Shown here: positions 6,101 through 45,036 of the stretch, in pieces
Layout of the letters: the number at the start of each line of letters is the position of its first letter
Numbering within the stretch: the stretch's first letter is position 1
DNA from: Dehalococcoidia bacterium
Lineage (GTDB): Bacteria > Chloroflexota > Dehalococcoidia > UBA6926
Length of the DNA stretch: 64,000 nucleotides
NCBI GenBank assembly: GCA_965206275.1
Contig: OZ242203.1
Coordinates: 761,894-825,893, forward strand
Direction of reading: 5' to 3'
The notes under the pieces: model-generated
Databases searched by the model: none
Told to the model about the DNA's origin: nothing
The model's input: only the letters and a program-made list of their open reading frames with translations
Translations under genes and position numbers: made by a program

Positions 6101-7692
6101 AGCCCGGCATCACGCTGATCTCGCCGCCGCCCCACCATGACATCTACTCCATTGAGGACCTGGCGCAGCTCATCTATGACCTCAAGACGGTCAATCCCCG
6201 AGCCAAGGTCAGCGTCAAGCTGGTGGCGGAAGCAGGCGTCGGCACTATTGCAGCCGGCGTCGCCAAGGGCTACGCGGACAAGGTCCAGATCTCCGGCCAT
6301 GAGGGCGGCACGGGCGCAAGTCCGCTGTCATCCATCAAGAACGCCGGCACGCCGTGGGAGCTTGGTCTCACAGAAGCGCAGCAAGTCCTGGTGATGAATG
6401 ACCTGCGCGGCCGCGTCAAGCTGCGCACGGACGGTGGTATCCGCACGGGGCGTGATGTCGTCATCGCAACGATGCTCGGCGCGGACGAAGTCGGCTTTGG
6501 CACCGTTGCCTTGCTCGCATTGGGCTGCGAAATGGCGCGCCAGTGTCATCTGAACAGCTGCCCCGTCGGGGTGGCCACGCAGCGAGACGATCTGATCGCC
6601 AAGTTCAACGGCTCCGTTGAGAATGTCGTAAATTACTTCACCTTCGTCGCAACGGAGGTCCGCGAAATCCTGGCTAGCATCGGCGTACGGTCCTTGAATG
6701 ACATCATCGGCCATCCGGAGTTCCTGAAGCTGCGCCCCGACATTGAGGAGTTTGAGCGCGCCAGGTTCGTGGACGCGCTCAAGCTAATCGCCCCCGCCGA
6801 CCCCACGTTCCAACGCCCGGTCAGCAATGAGCAGGACCGCAACGACAGGCCGAACGACGAGAAGCTCGACGACCGTATCCTGTCGGAGATCACGGGCGCT
6901 ATCGAGAGTAGAACTCCCGTCAAACTGTCCTACGACATCAGGAACGCCCAGCGCACGGTTGGTGCGCGCATCTCCGGAGCCATCGCGCATCGCTACGGCG
7001 TGAAGGGGCTGCCTCCCGGCACCATAGACCTCTCATTCACCGGTTCCGCTGGGCAGAGCTTTGGCGCATTCCTCAATGAGGGCGTGCGGATGACGCTCAC
7101 AGGCGAGGCGAATGACTATGTTGGCAAGGGAATGGCGGGCGGCGAACTCGTCATCAGGCCTCCTGCCGATGCAACCTTCGAGTCGCACAAGAACTCCATC
7201 ATCGGCAACACCTGTATCTACGGCGGCACAGGCGGCTACTTCTATGTTGCCGGACGAGCCGGAGAGCGGTTCGCCGTCCGCAACAGCGGCACGCAGGCCG
7301 TCGTGGAGGGAGTCGGGGATCACGGCTGCGAGTACATGACCAGCGGCATCGTGGTCGTCCTCGGAACCGTGGGACGCAACTTCGGCGCGGGCATGTCCGG
7401 CGGCGCGGCGTTCGTCCTGGACGAGACAGGCGATTTCCCGTCGCTCTACAACCAGGAACTGCTGGTTCTGGACAGGCTTGAAGACGATGACGACGAGCGG
7501 CACGTGCTGGAGCTCATTGAACGCCATGCAGAGACCACGGGCAGCAAGCGCTCCGCTGAAATCCTCGCCGATTGGCCCAGATACCGCGCAATGTTCTGGA
7601 AGGCGTTGCCGGCCCAGTTGCGGGACAAGAATCTCTCGCTCGCCGAGGTACTCAAGAAGGTTGAGGGAGCCGCGCTCGTAACCGCGCGGTAA
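3109..7692 (+). CDS. gltB: Glutamate synthase large subunit (1527 aa). It contains the Ntn amidotransferase, central, FMN/Fe-S and C-terminal GXGXG domains, and no gltD small-subunit gene follows it.
   Basis: The N-terminal ACGTGF motif carries the Cys nucleophile. The protein has the length and domain order of a ferredoxin-type or stand-alone GOGAT large subunit. The frame opens at TTG 3109, with an ATG at 3115. Confidence 0.9.
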   Translation: MAMANIEARRLRRPDAPPLYDPIHEKDACGTGFIAQVSGVPSHDIVRQAITAVVNLTHRGAVSADARTGDGAGILTQLPRKLLLRELAAQGISDVSGDDLAVGMIFFTPADPEGGKHAVKTIEKETERRGLRFLAWRDVPNDPSVLGEQALATLPDIRQAIIACPPDMDKDAFERALYLVRRAVEAEMTGRGDDEFYIPSFSSRTVVYKGLLVATQLSGFYKDLDDPDFESALAVFHQRYSTNTFPNWQLSQPFRFLAHNGEINTLQGNRNWLRAREANLSSEVWSKDDLRTITPVTNQSVSDSASLDHAFELLQVSGRSILHSMMMLTPEAWENMPHMDEDLRGFYRYHASLTEPWDGPAALAWSDGETVGASLDRNGLRPARYIITDDGLVVMGSEVGVLPHISTDRIIEKGRLGPGHMIAVDTRSGRVMKNGEIKSEIAVQQPYREWAEQQYIQLNVPIHAMQNGAGHHIEPEMELMRRQKAFGMTAEELLIIIKPMVQEGKDATYSMGDDTPLAVFSRMQPSLFNYFKQRFAQVTNPAIDPIREAIVMSAETYLGPRDSMLREREEAAHLLAIPGPVIRDHELDAIRSVDSPHLSSVTLPVVFAAEDGPDALEQALDDLCEQAVSAVDEGHSIIILSDRAVDERHAPIPMMLALGAVHHDLIRRGKRMKASLVCDTGEAREVHHFAALIGYGASAVNPYLIWESLRELFERGEFSEEEDEDYTIAKYQASANKGVLKIMSKIGISTVTSYHGAQIFEAIGLSDDIVQKCFAGTPSQVGGLGFRELATDVLARHDRAFNSELTPKSKLEDHGFIRYRKSGEFHANNPVVVRTLHKAVRSGDYEDYVPYRDALNNRPVSSLRDTLTFNKTREPISIDEVEPIEEIWKHFTTGAMSLGALSARAHETLAMAMNHIGGAADTGEGGEDPRRFRGLTRGYNANSKIKQIASGRFGVTPEYLAMAEEIEIKMAQGSKPGEGGQLPGHKVIEYIAYLRHTQPGITLISPPPHHDIYSIEDLAQLIYDLKTVNPRAKVSVKLVAEAGVGTIAAGVAKGYADKVQISGHEGGTGASPLSSIKNAGTPWELGLTEAQQVLVMNDLRGRVKLRTDGGIRTGRDVVIATMLGADEVGFGTVALLALGCEMARQCHLNSCPVGVATQRDDLIAKFNGSVENVVNYFTFVATEVREILASIGVRSLNDIIGHPEFLKLRPDIEEFERARFVDALKLIAPADPTFQRPVSNEQDRNDRPNDEKLDDRILSEITGAIESRTPVKLSYDIRNAQRTVGARISGAIAHRYGVKGLPPGTIDLSFTGSAGQSFGAFLNEGVRMTLTGEANDYVGKGMAGGELVIRPPADATFESHKNSIIGNTCIYGGTGGYFYVAGRAGERFAVRNSGTQAVVEGVGDHGCEYMTSGIVVVLGTVGRNFGAGMSGGAAFVLDETGDFPSLYNQELLVLDRLEDDDDERHVLELIERHAETTGSKRSAEILADWPRYRAMFWKALPAQLRDKNLSLAEVLKKVEGAALVTAR

Positions 7693-7879: not shown

Positions 7880-8608
7880 ATGAAGGCTGTCATTTTGGCA
7901 GCGGGACATGGCTCCCGCTTTGGCCAATACGGTGTCCGCCATAAGGCGCTCCTGCCTGTCAACGGGCAGACCGTGATCGACCACACACTGGACGGGATTC
8001 AACAGGCCGGTATAACGGACATCTGCATCGTCATCGGCCATGAGGGCCAGGCGCTGCAGGACGTTCTTGGCGACGGTTCAACACGCGGCGCCGATATCAC
8101 CTATGTCATGAACACCGAGCACCATCGGGGAAACGCCGTTTCCGTCCTTACTGCGAAAGATGAGGTCGGCACAGACCCGTTCATCCTCTCCATGGCCGAT
8201 CACATGCCTTCCTCAGACATCATTATTGGGCTCGTTGATGGGGCAAAGGAGAACGGGTGGGACCTGAATGCGCTCGCCGTGGATTTCGACCCTGACGACC
8301 GCGATGTCGAGGAAGGAACACGCGTCAGTGTGGATCATCACGGCCACATCGTGGCGATCGGCAAGAACCTGCCGAACTGGAACGGCATTGATTGCGGCGT
8401 CTTCCGGTTCACGCCCGCCATCTTTGAGGCCATAGAAGCCAAACTCGTGGAGGACAGTTCCCACGATGAGTTGAGCCAGGCCGTGACGCGTATGATCCTC
8501 TCCGGCAACGATCTCCATGCGCACGACGTTGACGGCGCGTTCTGGTTCGACGTTGACACGTGGGAAGACCTGAAGCTGGCGCGCGAGGCGCTCGGGTACG
8601 TCACGTAG
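7880..8608 (+). CDS. Sugar-phosphate nucleotidyltransferase resembling inositol-1-phosphate cytidylyltransferase (IPCT).
   Basis: It has the MKAVILAAGxGxRFG NTP-transferase N-terminus. Block-by-block it matches my recollection of the Archaeoglobus IPCT domain (ILSMADH, GAFWFDVDTWEDL). AAGGAGA lies 7 nt upstream of the ATG. Confidence 0.6.
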   Translation: MKAVILAAGHGSRFGQYGVRHKALLPVNGQTVIDHTLDGIQQAGITDICIVIGHEGQALQDVLGDGSTRGADITYVMNTEHHRGNAVSVLTAKDEVGTDPFILSMADHMPSSDIIIGLVDGAKENGWDLNALAVDFDPDDRDVEEGTRVSVDHHGHIVAIGKNLPNWNGIDCGVFRFTPAIFEAIEAKLVEDSSHDELSQAVTRMILSGNDLHAHDVDGAFWFDVDTWEDLKLAREALGYVT

Positions 8609-30539: not shown

Positions 30540-31369
30540 GCTCCGACCTCCACACCCACTCGACAATCTCAGACGGCCTCCTGTCGCCCGCGGAGCTTGT
30601 ACACCAGGCCGCCGCCGCAGGCGTCACGTATCTCGCGATCACTGACCATGACTCCACGGACGGGCTTGCCGAAGCACGGGAGGCGGCAGATCAACACCCC
30701 GGCCTGACACTCATCCCCGGCATTGAGATCTCCACAGACGTGCCGGAGGGGGAAGCGCACATCCTCGGCTATCTGCTTGACACCGAGAATGAGGAATTGC
30801 AAGCAACGCTCGCCTCGTTCCGTGACGACCGTGTAGGCCGCGCCATGCGCATGGTCGAGAACCTCGGAAACCTCGGCGTGCCCGTGTCATGGGAGCGCGT
30901 TGTGGAGATTGCGGGCGATGGAGCAATCGGCCGGCCTCATATCGCCCAGGCGCTCATGGAGGCGGGACACGTTCCCAGCATCCGCGAGGCTTTTGACCGT
31001 TACATCAGCAACGACGGCCCCGCGTACGCAGGCCGCCGCAAGATGCTCCCGGAAGAGGCCTTTCGCTTGGTGCGCCAGTACGGCGGCATCCCGGCCCTCG
31101 CCCATCCGAACGAGACGCCGCAATTGGAGTCCCTGCTCGCGGGATGGGTCGAGGCGGGCCTTGCGGGCATGGAGGTCTACTACGGTCTCTATCCTGACGA
31201 CCTGCGCGCCCACCTCAAGTCACTCGCCGATGAACACGGCCTGCTCGCCCTTGGTGGCAGTGACTACCATGGCCCGGGCCGAGCCGCGGAATGTCCTCTC
31301 GGCGGCTCCAACACCCCCTTGGAAGCAGGCGAGAGCCTTCTCGCCCTCCACGCCACAGTGTCTGGTTAA
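30536..31369 (+). CDS. PHP-domain phosphoesterase (TrpH/YciV-like).
   Basis: HTHSTISDG...ITDHD PHP motifs are present. The gene overlaps the ymdB stop by 4 nt. Confidence 0.8.
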   Translation: MSSDLHTHSTISDGLLSPAELVHQAAAAGVTYLAITDHDSTDGLAEAREAADQHPGLTLIPGIEISTDVPEGEAHILGYLLDTENEELQATLASFRDDRVGRAMRMVENLGNLGVPVSWERVVEIAGDGAIGRPHIAQALMEAGHVPSIREAFDRYISNDGPAYAGRRKMLPEEAFRLVRQYGGIPALAHPNETPQLESLLAGWVEAGLAGMEVYYGLYPDDLRAHLKSLADEHGLLALGGSDYHGPGRAAECPLGGSNTPLEAGESLLALHATVSG

Positions 31370-31376
31370 GAAATCC

Positions 31377-32507
31377 TCACCCGCCCAGCAAGACCGCAGC
31401 CCAGCCGACAACGGCGGCGACTGTGATCGCGAAGGCGGACTGCTTCACAACAAGCGTGCCCGCGAACCGTACCCCGAGTTCCCGCCCAATCGTGATTGCA
31501 GTGACCAGGCATGGCAGCACCGTTCCGGCGAGGAATGTTGCCACCAGCAGCTGGGTCGCGCTCAACGAAGCGACGGTGCCGGCCTCGGCCAGGAGCAATA
31601 TACCGTCCTTGCGCACACCGGCGAGCACGGTCGGCAAAGCCGCGTCCGCCGGCAGTGCGAACACAGCCATCGCCGGTGCCAACAGGGGCCCCGCTGCATC
31701 GAGCGCGCCTGACCAGTCGAGGAGAGAGGCGACCATCGCGATCGCGAAGAAGATCGGGACCGCCGTGCGGAAGAACGCCCAAACCATCGCTCGCGCCTCC
31801 GCCCCGACTGCCGCGAGGGAAGGCCACGTAAGGGCGGCGCGCTGTTCCATGAGGAGTGCGTTGAGCCTTGATCGCGCGTCAGGGCGACTGATAAGGCGCG
31901 TGTAGACGAGCGTCGCCGCGACGAGCAGTGCCAGGTACGGCACAACAAGACTGCTCCTGTCGGCGGCGGCAAAGACCGCGAGCGTCGCGCCGAGTTGGTA
32001 CGAGCAGGCAGACCCGAAGGCGATCGCGCCGACGGTCGTCGGCCGGGTGCAAGAAGCGCAGGAGCGTGTCGCGACGATCGCCGGGACGTTACAGCCGAAG
32101 CCCATCAGCACTTGTGTCACGTCGCGCCCTTGAAGGCCGACCCGCCGCAACAGCGGGTGAAGCGCCGTCCCGATGCCATCGGCGAGGCCGCTCACCTTGT
32201 AGGCGCTGATAAGCGCGGAGTAGACCAGCACAGTGGGAACCGCCCACACGAACAGCAGCGGCCCCATCGTGAGCAGTCCGTAGTCACCGGAGAGCACGGC
32301 CCTTAGCGGTCCCGGCCAGCCCGCTATCCTCTCGGCAAGCGGTGTCGTGATCGCCACGACAGGCGGATCAAGCCAGGCAGCCACCTGGTTCGCGCCGAGC
32401 ACGGCGAGCACAGCCGGCAAGACCAGCAAGATGACCGCGCTTGCGGGGCCTGCAACCGCGTGGTCGAGGAGTCCGTGCTGTGGCGTGTTCTGCCATCCCG
32501 CCCGCAA
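31377..32507 (-). CDS. FeoB-like gate-domain membrane protein (nucleoside-recognition domain) lacking the GTPase domain. The start is uncertain; a TTG near 32507 is suggested.
   Basis: It has the GFGCNVPAIVATRS gate motif and multiple transmembrane segments. The ORF-track start (32684) overlaps the upstream FAD-oxidoreductase gene, so an internal non-ATG start is more likely. Confidence 0.55.
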   Translation of the reverse strand: MRAGWQNTPQHGLLDHAVAGPASAVILLVLPAVLAVLGANQVAAWLDPPVVAITTPLAERIAGWPGPLRAVLSGDYGLLTMGPLLFVWAVPTVLVYSALISAYKVSGLADGIGTALHPLLRRVGLQGRDVTQVLMGFGCNVPAIVATRSCASCTRPTTVGAIAFGSACSYQLGATLAVFAAADRSSLVVPYLALLVAATLVYTRLISRPDARSRLNALLMEQRAALTWPSLAAVGAEARAMVWAFFRTAVPIFFAIAMVASLLDWSGALDAAGPLLAPAMAVFALPADAALPTVLAGVRKDGILLLAEAGTVASLSATQLLVATFLAGTVLPCLVTAITIGRELGVRFAGTLVVKQSAFAITVAAVVGWAAVLLGG

Positions 32508-32562
32508 CGGCGGTCGTTCAAGGCTGACCGGAGCGGGCGCGATTACGTCGATGTCATGTCGG

Positions 32563-33726
32563 TCAGCACGCACAGGATTCCACGCAGCAAGAAAGGTCGT
32601 CCAGGTACATCCCCGCCGTGCGGCGGGCCTCAACGGCTTCCGTGGTGTCCATTCCAAGACGCTGCGCGATAGCGTCTGCAACAACCGCGAAGCGCTGCCG
32701 GAACTTGTAGATGAAGCAGAAGTTCACGCCCCGGTGCTGAACAATCGGGCCGGAGAGGAACAGGTCGGGCACGAGCGTGGACTCGTCGGCCTCTTCCGTG
32801 ACGATGGGTTTGCCGTCCTCATCGTACTCAATCATGCCGTCGAGGTAGCTGAGAGACCCCTTGAAGCCGGTGGCGAGAATCGGTTGCGTCTCGCTCTCCC
32901 ACTCGCGGCCGTCCGAGGCCTGGACGACCCAACTGTCACCGTCCTCCCGTACCGACGTGATGTCGACACTGTCAAGGAGGGTCACGGAGCCCGTGGAGTC
33001 GGCCCATTCCAGGCGTTCACGCGAATATGGAGAGAGCGAGATGCTCGGATCCGGGTCTTCTCTCTTCCATGTCGCGTATCGCGCCAACACCGTCACGTCC
33101 TTCTCCAGCTGCACCAGCGAGATGGTCGCGTCTGCGGCGCTCTCGTAGCCGCCAATCACCGTGAAACGATCACCCTCCAGTTCCTGCCATGTGCCGACGT
33201 CGGAAGAGTGGCGGCAGAATTCTGCGCCCGGGATCGAATTGCGATTCGGGTACTGGAACTCCCCGGCCGCCCAGATGAGATGTCGCGCCCGCACCGGCCG
33301 GTCGCTAGTCGTGAGTGTGAACGTTCCGTTGTCCTCGACCGTGACGGAGCTGACATCGATGCCGGGCTTCACCTGGAGCTCGTAGTGATTGGCGACGTTG
33401 TCGAGGTACTTCGCGTAAGCGACTCCGCTGGGATGTTCGCGGTCGAGCGTGTACGCAGGCGACGTGTTGGGGACAATCGCGTTGAGATCGAGCAACCCAA
33501 ACGCGTTCGCAGTGAACGACGGCGTGATGAAGCGCATCTCTTGCGGCCACCGCCGGAACGAAGCGCCCACCTCGTAGCGATCCAGGATGATGACGTCGTC
33601 GACGCCAAACTCCTTGAGGGCCACCGCGCATCCCAGCCCGGCCGCCCCCGCGCCCACGATCGCGACTTCATGCACCTGCGACCCTTCCACCTTATCGCGC
33701 CATCGTCCCTGGTTCCGTTTGCTCAT
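32563..33726 (-). CDS. FAD-dependent oxidoreductase (NAD(P)/FAD-binding, flavin-monooxygenase-like).
   Basis: An N-terminal GAGAAG dinucleotide-binding motif is present. GAGAGGAA lies 7 nt upstream of the ATG at 33726. Confidence 0.75.
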   Translation of the reverse strand: MSKRNQGRWRDKVEGSQVHEVAIVGAGAAGLGCAVALKEFGVDDVIILDRYEVGASFRRWPQEMRFITPSFTANAFGLLDLNAIVPNTSPAYTLDREHPSGVAYAKYLDNVANHYELQVKPGIDVSSVTVEDNGTFTLTTSDRPVRARHLIWAAGEFQYPNRNSIPGAEFCRHSSDVGTWQELEGDRFTVIGGYESAADATISLVQLEKDVTVLARYATWKREDPDPSISLSPYSRERLEWADSTGSVTLLDSVDITSVREDGDSWVVQASDGREWESETQPILATGFKGSLSYLDGMIEYDEDGKPIVTEEADESTLVPDLFLSGPIVQHRGVNFCFIYKFRQRFAVVADAIAQRLGMDTTEAVEARRTAGMYLDDLSCCVESCAC

Positions 33727-33972
33727 GTGTCGTTCCTCTCAACGTGTTGCGTGTCAAAGTATTGCTCGCGATCCTCAACGTCGCAAAGCCAAATATAATC
33801 CCATGTGCCCCCAATCACGTCAATCCAAAATGAGACTGTCGCGAAGGTTTGTCCAGAATTGATACGGGCGGGAATCCGGCAGTCTCAATCCCGATGCGCC
33901 ACTCCCCCGATAGTGCTAGAGTCCGAATAACCGTTAGCTCTGATTCTCTTAACACACTGGAAGGAGCCTACG

Positions 33973-35430
33973 ATGAGAGCGATGCAGTGGTTGATGACCC
34001 GCCAGCGTGTCCCCGCCATCCTCGCCGCAACTGGCATCGTAACCCTGTTGCTCATGCTCCTCCGGCCCGCCGTCGCGCATGCGCAAGGTGTTGAACAGGA
34101 AACCGCTTTCGTCTTCAACACCCTCTCATTCCTCATCTGGGGCGCGCTCGTCATGTGGATGTGCGCCGGCTTCACCATGCTGGAAACCGGATCCGTTCGG
34201 ACCAAGAACGCCGCCATGATCTGCATGAAGAACATCGGCCTCTATTCCATCGCCGGACTTGCCTACTACATCATTGGCTACAACCTCATGTACGTGGACG
34301 TTGGCCGAGATCTGAACATCCTCGGCCTCAACGTGGGCGATCTCATCGGCACGTTTACCCTCACCTACAGTTCGTCCGCAGCGGAAATGGCGCTGCTTGA
34401 AGCTGAAGCAGGGGCCTCGGCGGCGGGTGTCCTGGAAGAATCCACCTATTCCTCGATGTCCGACTGGTTCTTCCAGATGGTCTTCGTCGCCACCACCGCC
34501 TCCATCGTCTCCGGCGCCCTCGCTGAGAGAGTCAAGATGTGGTCGTTCTTCATATTCACCCTGTGCCTCACGGCATTCATCTACCCGACAATCGGCGCGT
34601 GGACGTGGGGCGAAGGCTGGCTGAACCAACTCGGCTTCACCGACTTTGCCGGCTCCACCATCGTCCACAGCACTGGCGGCTGGGCTGCGTTGGCCGGTCT
34701 GATTGTCGTCGGGCCACGATTGGGCAAGTTCCGCCGCGATGGCACTGCGCGTCCCACCCCGCCCTCCAACATCATCTCCGTCACGTTGGGAGTCTTTATC
34801 CTCTGGTTCGGCTGGTTGGGATTCAACGGCGGATCGCAGCTCGCCCTCGGCAGTGCCGTCGACGCCGTCTGGATTAGCATCGTGCTGGTGAACACCAACC
34901 TGTCCGCAGCATCCGGCGTGCTGGTCGCCCTCTTTACGTCCCGATACATCCTGGGGCGCACGGATTTGTTCGCCGTCCTCAACGGCGCGATAGCTGGCCT
35001 TGTCTCCATCACCGCCGCCCCCAACTTCGTCGACCACTATTGGGCAATCATCATTGGCGCAGTCGGAGGACTTATCTGCACGGTCGGCCTGCGACTCCTT
35101 GAACGCATCAAGGTCGATGATGTCGTCGGCGCAGTCCCCGCCCACCTCTTTGCGGGCATCTGGGGCACGCTCGCGGCGGCCATCACGGTTGGCGCGCAAC
35201 TCCACGTCCAACTGCTGGGCGTCGTCGTCATCGGCGTTACTGTCTTCGGCATTGCCTGGCTCGTCTGGAAGGCGCTGGACATGACGCTGAGCGCCAGGGT
35301 GTCACGCCAAGTCGAAGAGCTCGGTCAGGACGCCGGCGAACTCCGCATGGAGTCATACCCCGAATTCGTCCTCATGCCCGAACCTGACTACGACGATGAC
35401 CTGGACCCCGAGATGCCAGCGACAAGCTAG
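33973..35430 (+). CDS. amt: Ammonium transporter (Amt family) with a signal peptide. No glnK gene is adjacent.
   Basis: It has the Amt transmembrane core (GFTMLETGSVRTKN..., DFAGSTIVH). GGAAGGAG lies upstream of the ATG. Confidence 0.9.
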   Translation: MRAMQWLMTRQRVPAILAATGIVTLLLMLLRPAVAHAQGVEQETAFVFNTLSFLIWGALVMWMCAGFTMLETGSVRTKNAAMICMKNIGLYSIAGLAYYIIGYNLMYVDVGRDLNILGLNVGDLIGTFTLTYSSSAAEMALLEAEAGASAAGVLEESTYSSMSDWFFQMVFVATTASIVSGALAERVKMWSFFIFTLCLTAFIYPTIGAWTWGEGWLNQLGFTDFAGSTIVHSTGGWAALAGLIVVGPRLGKFRRDGTARPTPPSNIISVTLGVFILWFGWLGFNGGSQLALGSAVDAVWISIVLVNTNLSAASGVLVALFTSRYILGRTDLFAVLNGAIAGLVSITAAPNFVDHYWAIIIGAVGGLICTVGLRLLERIKVDDVVGAVPAHLFAGIWGTLAAAITVGAQLHVQLLGVVVIGVTVFGIAWLVWKALDMTLSARVSRQVEELGQDAGELRMESYPEFVLMPEPDYDDDLDPEMPATS

Positions 35431-35450
35431 GGCGCTTGGTATCGGACTTA

Positions 35451-35658
35451 CTGTCATTCCGAGCGCAGCCGAGGAATCTAAAGCCGCGCCCTGTCAATCC
35501 ACCCCAATCCCCCGCGCAGGCGGGGACTGTCCCCACCGTCATTCCCGCGAAAGCGGGAATCCAGTGCGGCGCGCAGCGCCGCCTCCCCCGCTCACCCTGA
35601 GCCTGTCGAAGGGTTGAGCGTCCCCCTGTCATTCCGAGCGCAGTCGAGGAATCTAAAG
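35451..35658. repeat. Cluster of four REP-like elements filling the intergenic space between amt and the low-GC islet.
   Basis: Two copies of CTGTCATTCCGAGCGCAG(C/T)CGAGGAATCTAAAG lie at 35451-35483 and 35626-35658. A GAAA-tetraloop hairpin CGTCATTCCCGCgaaaGCGGGAATCC lies at 35537-35562. A TGAGCCTGTCGAA hairpin lies at 35590-35620. Confidence 0.6.
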
Positions 35659-35665
35659 ACCTGCC

Positions 35666-36433
35666 TTAGACATCGACGCAGGTAAAGTGTGGGTTTCGCC
35701 CCCTGCCCCAGCACGAATCCATGAAGGAATTGACACGCTCATACAAGAGAGTGGGGACCTCTTCGTTGGCAGAATTCGGGATGACAAAGAATACGCGTGG
35801 AGGTAACCGGTTGAATCGAAGAGCGACAATCTCACCACTTGGCCCAACAAGGTTTAACTCTCGTCGCAAATTGACAGCATGACGGTGTATTTGTTCTTCA
35901 TGAGTGCCGTCTCTATTGAAGTGCTGATAAATTACCAGTGACTTGCCCATTTCCCACAGTCTGGCTGCTTCGCCATGAGTAGCGTGCTCAACGTCAGGGG
36001 TATCCGCCAAGCCATTATCCGGATCGAGAAAGACTAAATCGCGGTCCCCCACCTCATGCATTGCCCGAGTGAACCAGCCGTCCCTAGCCAAAGGGGCATT
36101 GACCGAATCGCGGTAATACATTGTGCCATCCGACAACGCCCCTGAGTTTTGCATCGCCATAACCGATCTCTGGCCGTCATTGATGAGATTCTGCAAAATC
36201 CCATACAGCTCAGGGTCGCACTGTATCAAGCGTTGCTCGTGTTGACTTGGAATTTCGAGATAATTGAACGGTTGCCCTAGTTCAGGCAACGCTGCGTTTG
36301 TCTCAACGTAATACCAAATAACCCCTAGCCGCAGTTGCCATCCACCATCCGAGTCCCCACATAGCCACCTAAGCAACCCATATTTCCCAAAATCACCAAC
36401 ATCTCCGACGAATCGATCTTGCATCCGTGCCAA
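35666..36433 (-). CDS. Hypothetical cytoplasmic protein (255 aa) of low GC.
   Basis: The ORF is about 50% GC against about 65% in its surroundings. The N-terminus reads FVGDVGDFGKYGLLRWL. Later ...VFLDPDNGL... and ...LVIYQH... blocks weakly resemble the RlmJ-like methyltransferase fold, with the catalytic (D/N)PPY motif degenerate. Family is unassigned. Confidence 0.5.
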   Translation of the reverse strand: MARMQDRFVGDVGDFGKYGLLRWLCGDSDGGWQLRLGVIWYYVETNAALPELGQPFNYLEIPSQHEQRLIQCDPELYGILQNLINDGQRSVMAMQNSGALSDGTMYYRDSVNAPLARDGWFTRAMHEVGDRDLVFLDPDNGLADTPDVEHATHGEAARLWEMGKSLVIYQHFNRDGTHEEQIHRHAVNLRRELNLVGPSGEIVALRFNRLPPRVFFVIPNSANEEVPTLLYERVNSFMDSCWGRGRNPHFTCVDV

Positions 36434-36545
36434 CCTCCCAGCCTGGAATAACAGTGATCGCTAACCTACCACAGGCCAGCCATTTTCGCGGGCATTAACC
36501 CCGAGGCGCCCGCGGAGTTGATATCCCCACCGCTCCCCCCCCAAA

Positions 36546-36586
36546 ACCACCTCTGCCGCCCTCTTGATCAAGAGGACGGCAGAGGT
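36546..36586 (-). terminator. Intrinsic terminator hairpin downstream of the membrane-protein gene.
   Basis: The 9-bp stem CCTCTGCCG ... CGGCAGAGG encloses a nested palindrome (CCTCTTGATCAAGAGG). On the minus strand it is followed by GGTTTTGGGGGG. Confidence 0.5.
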
Positions 36587-36625
36587 TTCTAGTCCGTATT
36601 AGCCCGTGTGGACTGACGGGGAAGT

Positions 36626-37369
36626 CTAGTCTGCCGGGGAAAGCTCGCTGCGGCCCTGGTACATTCCGAAGCCGATGATGAACAGCGCTATCGAGCCCAC
36701 CATTAGGGTCACGTTGTTGATGACCAGTAGCATCTCTAGATCCAAATCAGTGAGGTGCATGCCCGCGTTGACGACTACGAAGGTCACAACTCCCACCAGC
36801 ATCAGCGCATAGCCGGCAATCTTGTAGATGTTCATCTCCTTGATGCACATCACCAGGCCAAGACCCAGGAGGAATGAGGCAAACGGCAAGATGAATAGGG
36901 ACGCCAGAAACGCCCCAACCATGTCCGCGTATCCTCCTATTGCCAGTAACTCAAACTGCGCCATCCCTTCAGGGCCCAGGGTGTCCTCGCCACGCTGCAG
37001 GAGATGGAGCAGGAGGTGTCGCTCGGCGTGTCCAAGGATGACCAAAGCCCACTCAACCACGGTCAGAATAATGCCGAAGCAGAGAATAGGACGGGCTAGG
37101 GCGCCTTCACCCTCAGATAAGGTGTAAAGCCGAATCACTGCCCCAATCATCAGAAGCATGCCGATAATCGAAACTGTTGAAGACACGTGACCAATGTTTG
37201 GATAGTCTGCCAGTACAGCGACAGTACCCACGTAGTCCGCTGGGTCCGTGTACTCAATGAGGAATCCACCCGGAAGGAAAAATGGCGCAACAAACGAAAG
37301 GACTATTCCGACCATAAACGCCAAGCCTGCTGCCTTGGTCTTCCGCGCAGCTCGCTCCTCGTTACTCAT
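36626..37369 (-). CDS. Hypothetical polytopic membrane protein (247 aa, about 6-7 transmembrane segments) of low GC.
   Basis: The ORF is about 50-52% GC, has a hydrophobic periodicity consistent with 6-7 helices, and has its own terminator. I recognise no family. Confidence 0.55.
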   Translation of the reverse strand: MSNEERAARKTKAAGLAFMVGIVLSFVAPFFLPGGFLIEYTDPADYVGTVAVLADYPNIGHVSSTVSIIGMLLMIGAVIRLYTLSEGEGALARPILCFGIILTVVEWALVILGHAERHLLLHLLQRGEDTLGPEGMAQFELLAIGGYADMVGAFLASLFILPFASFLLGLGLVMCIKEMNIYKIAGYALMLVGVVTFVVVNAGMHLTDLDLEMLLVINNVTLMVGSIALFIIGFGMYQGRSELSPAD

Positions 37370-37471
37370 GGGGCCTCCCCTCTGAGCTACTCCAATGGCA
37401 CAACGCTGACGCCATTAACCTAGACTTAAACTGTCCATTTATCAATGGGCAATTGTATCTCGCCAAAGGTT

Positions 37472-38875
37472 TCAGGCGGGCGGCAGCTTTGTCCCCGGCA
37501 CGGAGCGCATCGCCCGGTAAACAACCTCCGGCGCGGCCGGATGCACGTAGATTCCCTGCGAATACACGTCCGTCGTCAGGCCAATCCGCATCCCGTTTGC
37601 GATGTCCTGGATCAACGTTGCCGCGTCCGACCCCATGATGTGCGCGCCGAGAATCTCTCTGGTCTCCGCGTGCGCGATGATCTTCACGAAGCCCGTCAAA
37701 TCCCCGATGGCCACGCCGTGCGCCGTCCACGCGTACTCATACGTCCCCAGCACGTACGGCACACCCTCCTTGCGCGCCTGCTGTTCCGTCATGCCCACCG
37801 CGCCAACCTGCGGCGAGGCGAACACCGCATGCGGCATCGCGTGGTAGTTCACGGCCTCCTTTTGCCCGCGCTTGAACATGTTGTGGTCGGCGTACCACCA
37901 CTCCCAGTTCGCGTTGTGCTTCAGCTGGTATCGCCCCACCACGTCGCCCAGCGCCCAGATGCCCGGCACGTTCGTCTCCAGGTACTCGTCCACGATCACC
38001 AGCCCCCGCGCGTTCGTCTCAACGCCCGTCTTGTCCAGGTCGAGCCGATCCGAGTTCGGACGACGACCCGTCGCGAGCAGCAGCGTATCGCCCGTGATGG
38101 TCTCGTCGCCGCTCGGAGTCATGATTTCCAGCGAGATTTCGCCGTTGTTATGCGCCACGCTGCGCGTCTCCGCATCCAGAATCACGCGGTGCTTGCGCCG
38201 GAACAAATCCGTGAAACGCCGTGACACGTCCTCATCCTCGATGGGCAAAAGCGTTGGCCCGCGCTGAACAATCGTCACGTCCGTCCCAAGCGCCCCGTAG
38301 AAATGGGCAAGCTCGATGCCCACAAATCCGCCGCCCACGACGATGAGCTTCTCCGGCTGCTTGTCGTACCGCAGCGCCTCATCGGACGTCAGGTACGGCA
38401 CATCCTCGATGCCCGGGATGGGCGGCACAACGGGGCGGCTGCCCGCAGCAACCATGATCATCGGCGCGGTGATCCGCTCGCCGTTGACCTCCATCACTTT
38501 ATGGTCGACAAACCGTCCCTCACCCTTGTACAAAGTCACCTTGTCATTGCGTATGTACCGCGACTCAATGATGTTGGCGGCGTCATCCGCCTCGGAAACG
38601 ACACGGCTGACGATCTTATCCCAGTCAATGGCATCGACGTGGGCGATGATGCCGAAATCGGCCGCCTTGTCGATGATCTCCATCACGTCGGCGGAATGAA
38701 TGAGCTGCTTGGAGGGGATGCAGCCCCAATTGACGCATGTCCCGCCGAACGGCCCGCTCTCCACAATGGCGGCTGTCAGGCCCTCCGCCGCGGCGGAATC
38801 CGCGATGCTCACACCGGACCCCGTCCCAATCACGATCACGTCAAACTCACGCGCGCCGTTGCTCGTTGTTGTCAT
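37472..38875 (-). CDS. Dihydrolipoyl dehydrogenase-family pyridine nucleotide-disulfide oxidoreductase (class I).
   Basis: It has the GGTCVNWGCIPSK redox-active disulfide motif, FAD/NAD Rossmann motifs and a C-terminal dimerisation domain. GAGGAGAAGG lies upstream of the ATG at 38875. Confidence 0.8.
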   Translation of the reverse strand: MTTTSNGAREFDVIVIGTGSGVSIADSAAAEGLTAAIVESGPFGGTCVNWGCIPSKQLIHSADVMEIIDKAADFGIIAHVDAIDWDKIVSRVVSEADDAANIIESRYIRNDKVTLYKGEGRFVDHKVMEVNGERITAPMIMVAAGSRPVVPPIPGIEDVPYLTSDEALRYDKQPEKLIVVGGGFVGIELAHFYGALGTDVTIVQRGPTLLPIEDEDVSRRFTDLFRRKHRVILDAETRSVAHNNGEISLEIMTPSGDETITGDTLLLATGRRPNSDRLDLDKTGVETNARGLVIVDEYLETNVPGIWALGDVVGRYQLKHNANWEWWYADHNMFKRGQKEAVNYHAMPHAVFASPQVGAVGMTEQQARKEGVPYVLGTYEYAWTAHGVAIGDLTGFVKIIAHAETREILGAHIMGSDAATLIQDIANGMRIGLTTDVYSQGIYVHPAAPEVVYRAMRSVPGTKLPPA

Positions 38876-38948
38876 GATTCCTTCTCCTCGTTGCACGATC
38901 CTTCATTCTCTACGGTACAGAGTCGGCTTGGCCGCGACTTGGAGGGGA

Positions 38949-40385
38949 TCAGTTCGTATGCGTCTCGGCGAGGTAATCCAGCAGACCGATACCGATGTCC
39001 GCCGCCCAAACGATCAACTGTGGGTCGACGAAATCCAGGGTGTCCCGCGGCGAGTTGATACGGGACGTATCATTCGCGGTCACGATAACGGCCAGCACGC
39101 CAACATTCTGGAATGGCCGGTGATCACTATTGGATAACCCCCTGGTCAATGCCTCGGAAATCTCAATGCCTGTTTGCTCCGCCACCCGTATTGCTGCAGT
39201 CTCCAAGTCCGGGGCGCCCTGCACTTCAATCCTGTTTCCGGATCCGGGTGAGTCATAGTTGATCATCGCGATGATCTCTTCCCGTTCCTGCTCTGTCAGT
39301 TGCTCAACATAGTGCCTGCTGCCGAGCAGTCCAACCTCTTCCGACCCAAACAGCAGCAACCGAACGGTGAATGGATAGTCGGTGTCGATGATGTGGTTAG
39401 CGATGGCCATGAGCGCCGTCAGGCCCGAACCGTTGTCATTCGCGCCCTCAGTGAAATGGACGGTGTCATAATGCGCCCCCAGGATGACAACACCCTGACT
39501 GTCCGGCCCGCCCGGTTTATCGGCAATCAGGTTGCGCGATGGTTGATAGATATTCCTGACGCCCACAGTCACTTCCAGCCCGCCGCTCTCGATCGCTTCC
39601 TGCAGCGCAAGTCCATTCCCGCGACTGATACCGACTGCTGGTATGGCAGGCACTGTGTCCGGATTTACCATTCGCCCTCGATACAGAGCGTTCTCGGTAT
39701 TGAAGACGATGGCTCCAACGGCGCCTGCTTCCTCAACCCGCTCCACCTTCTCCTGGAATGTGATGAGACCCCGTTCAATTAGAGCAACCTTGCCGTCGAG
39801 CCACTGATCCCCAATGTCCTCAGGCAGCGCCAACCCAACAAAGACCAGCTCACCGGTGCCTTCTCCCACAAAAGAATGTGTGATTGGCAGCGACTGGAGG
39901 GTCTGCACGCTGGGCAGTTCCACGGATGCAACCACCGAGGATATTACGTTCGCCAACCGCTCGAATTCCTGGAATTCGGTGACGTAGCCAATTTCTGTGA
40001 GCACACAGTTCAACTCTTCACCCGCCGCGTATTCCTCATCCGTCGCGCTTTCCCGGGGACTGAATTCCTGCGTCAGTTCAAACAGGAAACGCCATGCCTC
40101 GTCGATGGCTATGGGGGGCGGTAGATCGATATCAGGAGCACTAAGGACACACGACGGCTCAGGTATCGCAGTCGGCGTGGCTGTCGGCGGCGGGGGAGTT
40201 GCCGTTGCCGTTGCTATGGGCGTTGCAGTTGGAACCAGCTCGATGACCGGTGGCGACGCCGGAGGAACCGGCGATCCCGTCGATTCCGGTGTAAAGTCAT
40301 CGCACGCCGCCCCAATCAACGCAACCGCGAGAATCCCCGCCAGCCAAAGCCATGCCATGCCCGTGCGTCGAGGGCTGGATATCAT
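38949..40385 (-). CDS. M28-family aminopeptidase lipoprotein with a PA domain and a Pro/Thr/Ala-rich linker.
   Basis: It has a lipoprotein signal (ILAVALIGAAC), a PT-rich linker and the M28 metal-binding region (...LLLFGSEEVGLLGSRHY...). The start is the ATG at 40385 or at 40358. Confidence 0.8.
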   Translation of the reverse strand: MISSPRRTGMAWLWLAGILAVALIGAACDDFTPESTGSPVPPASPPVIELVPTATPIATATATPPPPTATPTAIPEPSCVLSAPDIDLPPPIAIDEAWRFLFELTQEFSPRESATDEEYAAGEELNCVLTEIGYVTEFQEFERLANVISSVVASVELPSVQTLQSLPITHSFVGEGTGELVFVGLALPEDIGDQWLDGKVALIERGLITFQEKVERVEEAGAVGAIVFNTENALYRGRMVNPDTVPAIPAVGISRGNGLALQEAIESGGLEVTVGVRNIYQPSRNLIADKPGGPDSQGVVILGAHYDTVHFTEGANDNGSGLTALMAIANHIIDTDYPFTVRLLLFGSEEVGLLGSRHYVEQLTEQEREEIIAMINYDSPGSGNRIEVQGAPDLETAAIRVAEQTGIEISEALTRGLSNSDHRPFQNVGVLAVIVTANDTSRINSPRDTLDFVDPQLIVWAADIGIGLLDYLAETHTN

Positions 40386-40400
40386 TGCCGAATTAACACC

Positions 40401-40425
40401 ACGCCCCGACCTAAACGATCGGGGC
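40401..40425 (-). terminator. Hairpin terminator downstream of the copA/YHS operon.
   Basis: The 8-bp stem CGCCCCGA / TCGGGGCG has loop cctaaacga. It lies between the YHS-gene stop and the M28-peptidase start. Confidence 0.4.
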
Positions 40426-40475
40426 GCTTTGCGGAAGAGTTTCAGGATAGTGCCCGAGAACAACGTGTTCTTCCC

Positions 40476-43464: not shown

Positions 43465-43538
43465 TGGGGAATCGTCTAACGGTAGGACGACAGACTCTGG
43501 ATCTGTTAGTCGTGGTTCGAATCCACGTTCCCCAGCCA
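43465..43538 (+). tRNA. tRNA-Gln (anticodon CTG).
   Basis: Acceptor TGGGGAA/TTCCCCA, D-stem GTCT/GGAC, anticodon stem ACAGA/TCTGT with loop CTCTGGA, T-stem CGTGG/CCACG with loop TTCGAAT, discriminator G, and CCA encoded. Confidence 0.85.
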
Positions 43539-43552
43539 AAACCAACGACCTC

Positions 43553-44197
43553 TTACGGAATCTCAGTAGCCAGCGTCTCCCAGCCCGGTGCCAGTGTCGG
43601 AATTCCCCATTCGGTCGGCGGTATCCACGTCCGCCAGCGGTCATCGATAGCAGGATGATCGCCACTCTGTATCCATTCGATCGCCCGCTCCGCCTCCGCC
43701 CGCGCCGCATCGGCATCCTGACGAGTCATGCTGCCATAAGCGACCGCCTCTTCGACCTCATCCTCATCCTTCCACTGAGGCTCACTGAGATCAGGTGGAA
43801 ACACAACGTCAAGGTGCAAGTCCGTCGTATCGAGTCCAATCACGGTTCGTCTGAAGGGCGCCTCCAGGTTCACATACCACCACAGCACGTCCCCATCCCC
43901 AAGGAAGACCAACACGGAATGCGCCGCGCCCTCCAGGAAAACGCGCACCATTCCATTTCCATACCAAACGTCGTCACGCAGTTCCCAGTCACCGTGCGGC
44001 AGTCGAACGTCATTGCCTTCAAGATCGACGGGGCGTTTCCAGACAGTCCCCGGCGGCGTACAAGCCGCAATCAAATCACCGCGATCCTCAATAACCACGA
44101 ACGCCCACGCTGTGAACACCCGCCCATGCCAGATATTCCGCCCCGTAATGTACTCCCCCGGCCGCCAGAGATCCGGGGTGGGGTGGAGCTCATTCAT
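43553..44197 (-). CDS. Hypothetical protein (214 aa), possibly DUF402/NTP-hydrolase-like.
   Basis: An ORF of intermediate GC. The family call is weak and from memory only. Confidence 0.4.
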   Translation of the reverse strand: MNELHPTPDLWRPGEYITGRNIWHGRVFTAWAFVVIEDRGDLIAACTPPGTVWKRPVDLEGNDVRLPHGDWELRDDVWYGNGMVRVFLEGAAHSVLVFLGDGDVLWWYVNLEAPFRRTVIGLDTTDLHLDVVFPPDLSEPQWKDEDEVEEAVAYGSMTRQDADAARAEAERAIEWIQSGDHPAIDDRWRTWIPPTEWGIPTLAPGWETLATEIP

Positions 44198-44208: not shown

Positions 44209-45036
44209 TTAGGAACTTGGGTGAGTTTGCTCAGTTGACTGAGCACGATAGTCATGTCTCCGGATTGTCTCTATGACTTCATTGAGGAAATCAGTGAGCA
44301 CGCCAATCTGCGTGTCGTCCAAGTCTCGATCTGTATCGAACCGAAGATTTTCCCCGGTTCCAGCGATTTCAAAGAGGCTTGTTTTTCGTGCATTTTCCCT
44401 AAGCTCGTCAATCGCATCATCTGATACTCCGCCTTTTTGGCGAGCAGAATCGAGGGCTGTGTATATTCTTTGATCGTAGGCGCTAGGTGGGAAACCATAA
44501 CAGACCACAACGGGTCCATTACTGGATAGCACGTTTAACGAAAATCCACTGACACCCCATTTGACGTGCATTCCTTTCTTTGCGCCAAGTGCCAGCACTT
44601 GCTTATATACCCCGGCGCCATTCTCAGTTAGGGACGCCATAAAATCATCTTCGGTCGTCTTGCTTTGCCGCCTCTTATAGATCACGAGGGCATCCCGATC
44701 CTCAGTTTCAAGGACAGCATCTTGTTCGTTGCGATCGGGTGTCGCATCCTTACCCGGCATTACACTCAAGATAGCTTCAGCTTGCTCAGGTTCTATCTTG
44801 AAGAATTCCCGAGAAGGGTTTATGCGATAGGGTTCAAATGCTCTGTGCAATGCGCTTTCGATGTTCTGCGCATCCCTACCTTCAATTTCACGGGCTACAA
44901 AACATTCAAAGGGGAGTGGCAGTCCAGTACCATAGAGTTCCGCCATCCGGATCTGTACGTCATTTCTGTCGGTCATTCCGATTTTGACGAACCCGGGCAT
45001 AGCCGGGTTCGTCAGGACATAGACAATGTTCGGCAT
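44209..45036 (-). CDS. T5orf172 (GIY-YIG-like, MUG113) domain protein of low GC.
   Basis: The N-terminus IVYVLTNPAMPGFVKIGMTDRNDVQIRMAEL...PFECF...SREFFKI matches the T5orf172 signature. The ORF is about 50% GC. Confidence 0.8.
   Translation of the reverse strand: MPNIVYVLTNPAMPGFVKIGMTDRNDVQIRMAELYGTGLPLPFECFVAREIEGRDAQNIESALHRAFEPYRINPSREFFKIEPEQAEAILSVMPGKDATPDRNEQDAVLETEDRDALVIYKRRQSKTTEDDFMASLTENGAGVYKQVLALGAKKGMHVKWGVSGFSLNVLSSNGPVVVCYGFPPSAYDQRIYTALDSARQKGGVSDDAIDELRENARKTSLFEIAGTGENLRFDTDRDLDDTQIGVLTDFLNEVIETIRRHDYRAQSTEQTHPSS

Follow-up and report, generated by a model that had tools for sequence, protein, structure and literature searches.

A Dehalococcoidia gene with an RlmJ-like methyltransferase fold, exchanged allele by allele at a conserved locus and probably engaged in genetic conflict

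A 64,000-nucleotide stretch of contig OZ242203.1 from a Dehalococcoidia bacterium (assembly GCA_965206275.1, positions 761,894 to 825,893; hereafter the window) contains two adjacent genes of low G+C content, here called A and B, beside a cluster of repetitive extragenic palindromic (REP)-type hairpins. An initial annotation of the patch had proposed a 1.8-kb insertion encoding a soluble protein and a membrane protein, with an architecture common to defence or toxin/immunity pairs. The unit of interest proves to be one gene, A, and not a two-gene islet. The features on which the argument depends are listed below.

35666-36424, minus strand: gene A, encoding a 252-aa soluble protein with an RlmJ-like class I methyltransferase fold
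35667-36365, minus strand: segment exchanged between alleles (the body of A), beginning near codon 20 and ending with the last sense codon
36434-36439, minus strand: Shine-Dalgarno sequence GGGAGG of gene A, 9 nt 5' of the ATG at 36424, read from the sequence
36546-36586, minus strand: terminator-like hairpin with a 17-bp stem and GAUC loop, then UGGUUUUGGGG; 3' of B and 5' of A
36626-37369, minus strand: gene B, encoding a 247-aa polytopic membrane protein of six long helices and one short helix
35431-35665, no strand: REP-type hairpin cluster in the 235 bp that separate A from amt, whose 3' ends converge

Both open reading frames (ORFs) of the initial annotation were confirmed on the minus strand, with the start of A moved to 36424: the listed ORF opens at TTG 36433 (255 aa), and the ATG at 36424 is the preferred start because the N-terminus of the protein family is MQDR(Y/F) and GGGAGG lies 9 nt before this codon. 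The 252-aa product is identical to database entry P0001; residue numbers given here follow the 255-aa ORF. Hydropathy bears out the soluble nature of A (zero hydrophobic segments) and the 6–7 transmembrane segments of B, for which the AlphaFold2 model gives six long helices and one short. Gene A has a G+C content of 50.7% and a third-codon-position value (GC3) of 0.53; gene B has 54.7%, with a GC3 of 0.66 and a second-position value (GC2) of 0.37, and the 50–52% initially given for both holds for A but understates B a little. Five flanking core genes (CopA, Pyr_redox, amt, flavoprotein and Gate) lie at 61–67% with GC3 of 0.78–0.82, leaving the GC3 of A ∼0.27 under that of its neighbours. Among the window genes (mean 61.5%, standard deviation 3.6, n = 45) A is second-lowest and B third-lowest, and the G+C profile, anything but flat, falls to 0.50–0.57 across 35550-37500. 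The GC3 of both genes is thus of the atypical kind associated with a horizontally acquired islet, the low G+C of B being due in part to its hydrophobic residues. No tRNA adjoins the low-GC patch, and a sigma-70 promoter scan gave no match in the region.

Seven related metagenomic or metagenome-assembled contigs (L001, L002, L003, L005, L084, L085 and L086) share the order CopA - YHS - (M28 peptidase) - (Pyr_redox) - (B) - A - (amt) - ... PHP - YmdB - RNase Y - RecA, and an A-family gene is present at the site in all seven. None has an empty site, and amt stands directly beside the Pyr_redox gene in none of them, the juxtaposition that the initial annotation had suggested looking for in related strains. 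Amino acid identity to the window in the closest relatives is 87–96% for CopA, Pyr_redox, amt and the flavoprotein, 82–87% for B (L001, L085) and only 40–42% for A (L001, L085). By blastn of the window against L001, L085, L084 and L086, the window and its sister L001 are collinear at ∼86% nucleotide identity over 31001-35666 and 36366-38854, a backbone that includes amt, the REP cluster, the A–B spacer with its hairpin, B and Pyr_redox; 35667-36365 is the sole stretch in 31001-38854 without nucleotide similarity to L001. The breakpoints fall within the conserved 5' 60 nt of A and at the stop codon beside the REP cluster. Allele replacement is limited to the ORF body of A, and the 1.8-kb block is rejected as a single insertion, the site being always occupied and the body of A alone non-homologous.

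The A alleles of this locus divide into several deep classes: the first in the window, L084 (allele a) and L086, with 67–73% mutual identity; the second in L001, L002 and L003; and the third in L085 and L084 (allele b), with L005 a more distant relative of both (53–55%). The allele of L004 is close to none of them. The window, L001 and L085, with near-identical backbones, carry three different classes at 37–47% identity. In L084 (7001-9214) two alleles stand in tandem, with 73% and 40% identity to that of the window, and a convergent amt 3' end follows each allele, the first of these ends being a 150-codon fragment; this tandem is a footprint of recombination with amt as anchor and shows how alleles exchange.

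The family to which A belongs is large and uncharacterised. A search with the single A sequence gave 708 matches; the family is found in at least 504 species-level genomes, archaea included, with Dehalococcoidia, Acidimicrobiia, Alphaproteobacteria, Planctomycetota, Omnitrophota, Bacillota, Methanomicrobiales and Hydrothermarchaeales among its taxa, and a profile of distant-branch members extends it to at least 2,650 proteins. Wherever a relative carries a name, it is just ‘hypothetical protein’, and precomputed Pfam domains are all but absent. Neither A nor B matches Pfam or NCBIfam (E <= 1), PADLOC-DB v2 (E <= 1) or PHROGs, in keeping with the initial view that neither protein could be assigned to a family; the PADLOC comparison, which had been suggested as a check, found no known defence model for either. 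Residues D11, G13, D14, K17, G19-L-L-R22, W40, R89, R117, W120, D137-P138-D139 and Y169 are invariant in the alignment of A and N140-G141 nearly so, yielding the family pattern MQDRYxGDxGDxxK...W...R...R..W...DPDNG...Y; the motifs quoted in the initial annotation do occur in A and coincide with the best-conserved stretches of the family.

RlmJ, the 23S rRNA m6A2030 methyltransferase (Pfam PF04378; PDB 6qe5, the 4blu series and 2oo3), is the closest fold to A. Its motif IV is DPP(Y/F) with catalytic D164, its motif X tail contributes catalytic Y4, H6 and K18, with D15 positioning K18, and its contacts with S-adenosylmethionine (SAM) involve H42 (motif I), E118/L119 (motif II), D143-G144-F145 (motif III), S100 and H19 (PMC3814359). 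Like RlmJ, A has an inserted helical subdomain; it also has an invariant Asp-x-x-Lys (D14/K17) with the spacing of RlmJ D15/K18, and an Asp-Pro (D137-P138) comparable to D164-P165; by motif order, D137, K17 and D14 would be the counterparts of the catalytic Asp/Lys pair and the Lys-positioning Asp, and W40 and Y18 could stand in for H42 and H19, respectively. A also departs from RlmJ in several ways. Motif IV is DPDNG in place of DPPY in 50 close and 11 distant members, the PPY being replaced by P-D-N-G; the Y4/H6 tail gives way to an invariant MQDR(Y/F)xGD, in which the aromatic F/Y8 is present and a His equivalent is not; the motif-II acid that contacts the SAM ribose in RlmJ, after beta-2, is not conserved; in the model a single beta-alpha unit separates the helical insert from beta-4, against two in RlmJ, so that motif III seems to be missing, and its Asp-Gly-Phe has no conserved counterpart. 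Many Arg and Asp residues are invariant in A, and its genomic behaviour is mobile and polymorphic, again unlike RlmJ. Comparison of A with PDB sequences (phmmer with the single sequence, hmmsearch with the profile) gave chance matches only, none to RlmJ, and hhalign of the A profile against an approximate E. coli RlmJ sequence was not significant, with motif IV alone aligned. Because no sequence method links the two, A is regarded as a separate family of the RlmJ fold, outside PF04378.

The neighbourhoods of A were surveyed in 83 genome loci by all-against-all clustering of ORFs and a Pfam scan of the 39 same-strand immediate neighbours. A is usually solitary, with no same-strand neighbour within 120 bp in 32 of the 83 loci, and, recurrent cassettes apart, no universal partner gene was found across them; in 57 of 77 loci its GC3 falls below the values of the neighbouring genes. 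One recurrent cassette, found at 10 loci (L021, L025, L028, L036, L055, L061, L062, L075 and L079, and rearranged in L014), has the order PurA-like (adenylosuccinate-synthetase-like; PF00709) - dCTP-deaminase-like (DCD-like; PF22769) - A, often followed by a P-loop nucleotide-kinase-like gene. It occurs in both Dehalococcoidia and Alphaproteobacteria with partners just 36–51% identical; the DCD-like protein carries a hydrophobic or coiled-coil C-terminal extension, and the cassette proteins have only weak generic matches in PADLOC (E >= 2.6e-4). In a second arrangement, at five loci (L094 3454-9457; L112 3019-8457; L116 4988-8307; L117 3156-5427; L102 25-5342), A lies between genes for a Macro-domain protein (336–364 aa) and a VWA-like protein (217 aa), with or without an ADP-ribosylglycohydrolase (ARH). 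The A proteins of this arrangement belong to a 240-aa branch of the family, the genes are separated by gaps of 0–30 bp or have overlapping stops, and the cassette is directly downstream of McrB-McrC in three loci, with a type I HsdR gene adjoining it in L112. Type IV restriction loci thus seem to have acquired an add-on that has not been described before; the literature searched gave no description of the A family, of RlmJ-like defence genes, or of either gene order.

ADP-ribosylating toxins are paired with a macrodomain or ADP-ribosylglycohydrolase antidote in DarT-DarG and in the pairs of ADP-ribosyltransferase (ART) toxin and ARH immunity protein. The tight linkage of the 240-aa branch to Macro, and often ARH, genes in defence islands resembles these systems and shares their gene logic of a modifying enzyme with de-modifying enzymes; this is a likeness of neighbourhood only, A having no ART fold and the window gene neither a Macro nor an ARH neighbour. 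Among further contexts, GmrSD is near A in L107; in prophage-like IMG/VR contigs of ∼60% G+C (L091 1141-4912; L090, L092, L093, L095, L097), A lies on the opposite strand between the portal and large terminase genes, the classic moron position and one typical of phage orphan methylases. A also occurs between two GIY-YIG genes on an Ensifer conjugative plasmid, among the cargo of a Tn916-like integrative and conjugative element (ICE), and in a Fic/HipA/MutH/MazG island, with apparent fusions to an IMPase/CysQ-like domain, Hypoth_Ymh (PF09509) and an HD phosphohydrolase domain (L008 8001-9602; L016 2692-4026; P0361). The distribution of A is patchy and includes mobile elements. In being solitary, of atypical G+C, borne on prophages, plasmids and ICEs, and represented by divergent alleles at one site, A resembles phage morons, orphan methyltransferases and polymorphic single-gene defence loci; unlike those, it has no PADLOC or PHROG family and is inherited like a core gene in some Dehalococcoidia.

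The reading favoured here, with somewhat better than even confidence, is that A encodes a stand-alone, horizontally exchanged enzyme that modifies an adenine-containing target, its alleles being kept by conflict with phages or mobile elements. The target would be either nucleic acid or a small molecule (a nucleotide or a compound derived from NAD), and the reaction methyl transfer or some chemistry derived from it; small-molecule substrates are considered because A is partnered by Macro, ARH, HD, IMPase, PurA-like and DCD-like genes or domains. Diversifying selection, as in phage defence or counter-defence, may hold the allelic diversity, and at the window locus A would act alone and not with B. 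A role in conflict is probable, and to that extent the defence idea of the initial annotation survives, in the conflict and mobile contexts of A elsewhere; its two-gene form with B is not supported. A bolder formulation, to be entertained only tentatively, is that the family may be a new RlmJ-fold-derived enzyme class without canonical SAM adenine methylation, acting on an NAD/ADP-ribose-derived or nucleotide substrate, and serving both as the core of at least two undescribed conflict systems (Macro - A - VWA - ARH beside McrBC, and PurA-like - DCD-like - A - kinase) and as an immunity gene that works alone and swaps alleles in Chloroflexota from sponges or marine settings. A is an undescribed member of a known fold class and not demonstrably a new kind of system. 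Its interest is that of a family of several thousand proteins from many bacterial and archaeal phyla, without an entry in Pfam, NCBIfam, PADLOC or PHROGs, yet with a confident fold and an unusual motif; cassette-like allele exchange at one fixed site, together with the links to ADP-ribose-processing enzymes, type IV restriction systems and PurA-like/DCD-like genes, makes it a tractable candidate for new nucleotide or nucleic-acid chemistry in conflicts with phages or mobile elements.

Several observations weigh against a conflict role or its stand-alone form. No relative of A was found by tblastn against 50,697 phage genomes, nor any match at E <= 0.001 in the BFVD viral structure library, and PADLOC has no model for it. 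The 39 closest same-strand neighbours are a mixture, mostly of ordinary housekeeping genes, and in one Dehalococcoidia clade A stands in the order tpiA - A - miaA, is as conserved as those two genes (66–95%) and matches them in composition, behaving there like a stable housekeeping gene and fitting an RNA-modification enzyme better than a defence protein. The active-site equivalences with RlmJ are drawn from the order of motifs. Finally, an A gene follows B in six of the six lineage loci that have B (window, L001, L002, L003, L085 and L086), which leaves a local functional link between the two genes some small residual likelihood.

The idea from which the analysis started, that A and B are one horizontally acquired module of a soluble sensor or enzyme and a membrane effector or immunity protein (abortive infection or toxin/immunity), nevertheless appears very improbable. 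The genes are neighbours on the same strand, both of low G+C, and their order is constant in the six loci just named, but among 113 fetched loci with an A gene a B-profile search found B in 5, each a close relative, and in none of the other 108, and A occurs without B within the same lineage (L005, L084), so that the supposed conserved pair co-occurs inside a narrow lineage only. A is independent of B, which is a lineage-specific protein of 6–7 transmembrane helices and part of the stable backbone of the locus, at ∼86% nucleotide identity where A has been swapped independently. Among 5.8 billion proteins B has 14 homologues at >=53% identity, and an exhaustive profile search of 1.84 billion proteins gave 168 representative clusters. 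A fold search with the B model returned only generic helical bundles. At ∼240 aa with 6–7 transmembrane helices, B resembles the DUF6796/DUF4386-like membrane proteins, and one distant relative matches DUF6796 below threshold (E 0.017); Pfam, however, gave nothing for the window protein or for nine further relatives. Between the two genes, 201 bp apart, lies the hairpin at 36546-36586, which was reported initially and is confirmed here, followed on the coding strand by a short U tract (UGGUUUU). The 106-nt spacer folds at −53.7 kcal/mol (z = −4.5, 0 of 200 shuffles equally stable), and a simple consensus terminator scanner did not list the hairpin. A strong hairpin and a spacer of about 200 bp, which in L002 and L003 contains an ORF of 72–79 aa, make co-transcription of A and B unlikely, as far as sequence can indicate.

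Three other explanations concern A itself or the whole patch. It might be a housekeeping RNA-modification enzyme, an RlmJ analogue acting on rRNA or tRNA adenine that diverged under weak constraint or by occasional orthologous replacement, and several features speak for this: RlmJ is its closest fold, equivalents of the catalytic Asp and Lys are kept, the site is filled in every relative, A is mostly solitary among housekeeping genes, and the conserved tpiA - A - miaA clade places it beside miaA, a tRNA-modification gene. Such a role would make A unusual among enzymes that modify ribosomes or tRNA, in being polymorphic and exchanged horizontally; it is judged unlikely, given three classes at 37–47% identity within backbones 87–96% identical and with cassette-like breakpoints, the occurrence of A on plasmids, an ICE and prophages and its patchiness across phyla, the recurrent Macro/ARH/McrBC and PurA-like/DCD-like links, and the replacement of DPPY with no conserved motif-II acid. 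Improbable in turn is an orphan DNA (adenine) methyltransferase, a restriction-modification remnant or mobile anti-restriction methylase whose swapping changes specificity. The methyltransferase fold, the Asp-Pro of motif IV and the motif X Lys do resemble m6A DNA methyltransferases, the terminase-portal position and restriction-system neighbours would suit one, and alleles at a fixed locus recall specificity switching. However, A, at 250 aa and with a small helical insert, has no target-recognition domain, it matches neither N6_N4_Mtase, MethyltransfD12 nor any other Pfam methyltransferase model, no cognate nuclease adjoins it in the window, the aromatic residue is missing from DPDNG and conservation does not extend to the cofactor contacts of motifs II and III, while McrBC and GmrSD, which attack modified DNA, fit poorly as partners of a methylase. 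That the low G+C merely reflects amino acid composition or relaxed selection in a vertically inherited region has the least likelihood of all: it is plausible for B, which is collinear with its relatives and owes part of its G+C to hydrophobic residues (GC2 0.37), and refuted for A, whose deficit lies at third codon positions (0.53 against ∼0.80) and whose body lacks nucleotide homology with its counterpart at this site in the sister genome.

The REP-like cluster beside A, reported in the initial annotation and confirmed at 35431-35665, is composed of the following elements.

35451-35490 and 35626-35665: two 40-nt REP units, ‘GTCATTCCGAGCGCAG(C/T)CGAGGAATC’, 90% alike
35508-35531 (TCCCCCGCGCAGGCGGGGACTGTC) and ∼35566-35583: GC-rich hairpins
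35538-35561: hairpin GTCATTCCCGCGAAAGCGGGAATC

One ‘ATTCCCGCGAAAGCGGGAAT’ unit lies in the cluster. No further copy of the units was found in the window, where 0 matches are expected by chance; the 40-nt unit also occurs between A and amt in L001, L085 and L086, and the ATTCCCGCGAAAGCGGGAAT unit is frequent in intergenic DNA of other Dehalococcoidia loci. In L002 and L003, inverted ATTCCCGCGAAAGCGGGAAT hairpins at 6923-6942 (plus strand) and 8113-8132 (minus strand) flank a unit of a small ORF and A, a bracketing that may be coincidence or may mark a recombination hot-spot. An Rfam scan covering 33500-39000 gave a single sub-threshold match, of the hairpin at 35508-35531 to CRISPR-DR28 (23.5 bits against a gathering threshold of 35, E 0.81), which was judged to be chance, the element being present in one copy and in no array.

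The small ORF of 72–79 aa is Cys-rich, with a CxCGCGG...HDR motif and no Pfam match, and is found in L084 (6756-6995), L003 (7041-7280), L002 (7061-7279) and L004 (∼6323-6541), 5 bp upstream of A in the first three and ∼1.4 kb upstream in L004. It was considered as a partner of A and rejected, being absent from the window and from all but these four loci. A second polymorphic gene of the locus, encoding an M28/PA-domain peptidase (38949-40463, minus strand; GC3 0.65), is absent in L001 and L085 and 48–72% identical in other relatives, while its neighbours are at ∼90%. The lowest-GC gene of the window (44209-45036, minus strand; GC 48.9%, GC3 0.48) encodes a T5orf172/MUG113 (GIY-YIG-related) domain and adjoins a DUF402 gene (43553-44197, minus strand) and tRNA-Gln (43465-43538, plus strand) just past CopA; the order T5orf172 - DUF402 - CopA recurs in L001, and this stretch may represent a small insert, mobile or accessory, at the tRNA.

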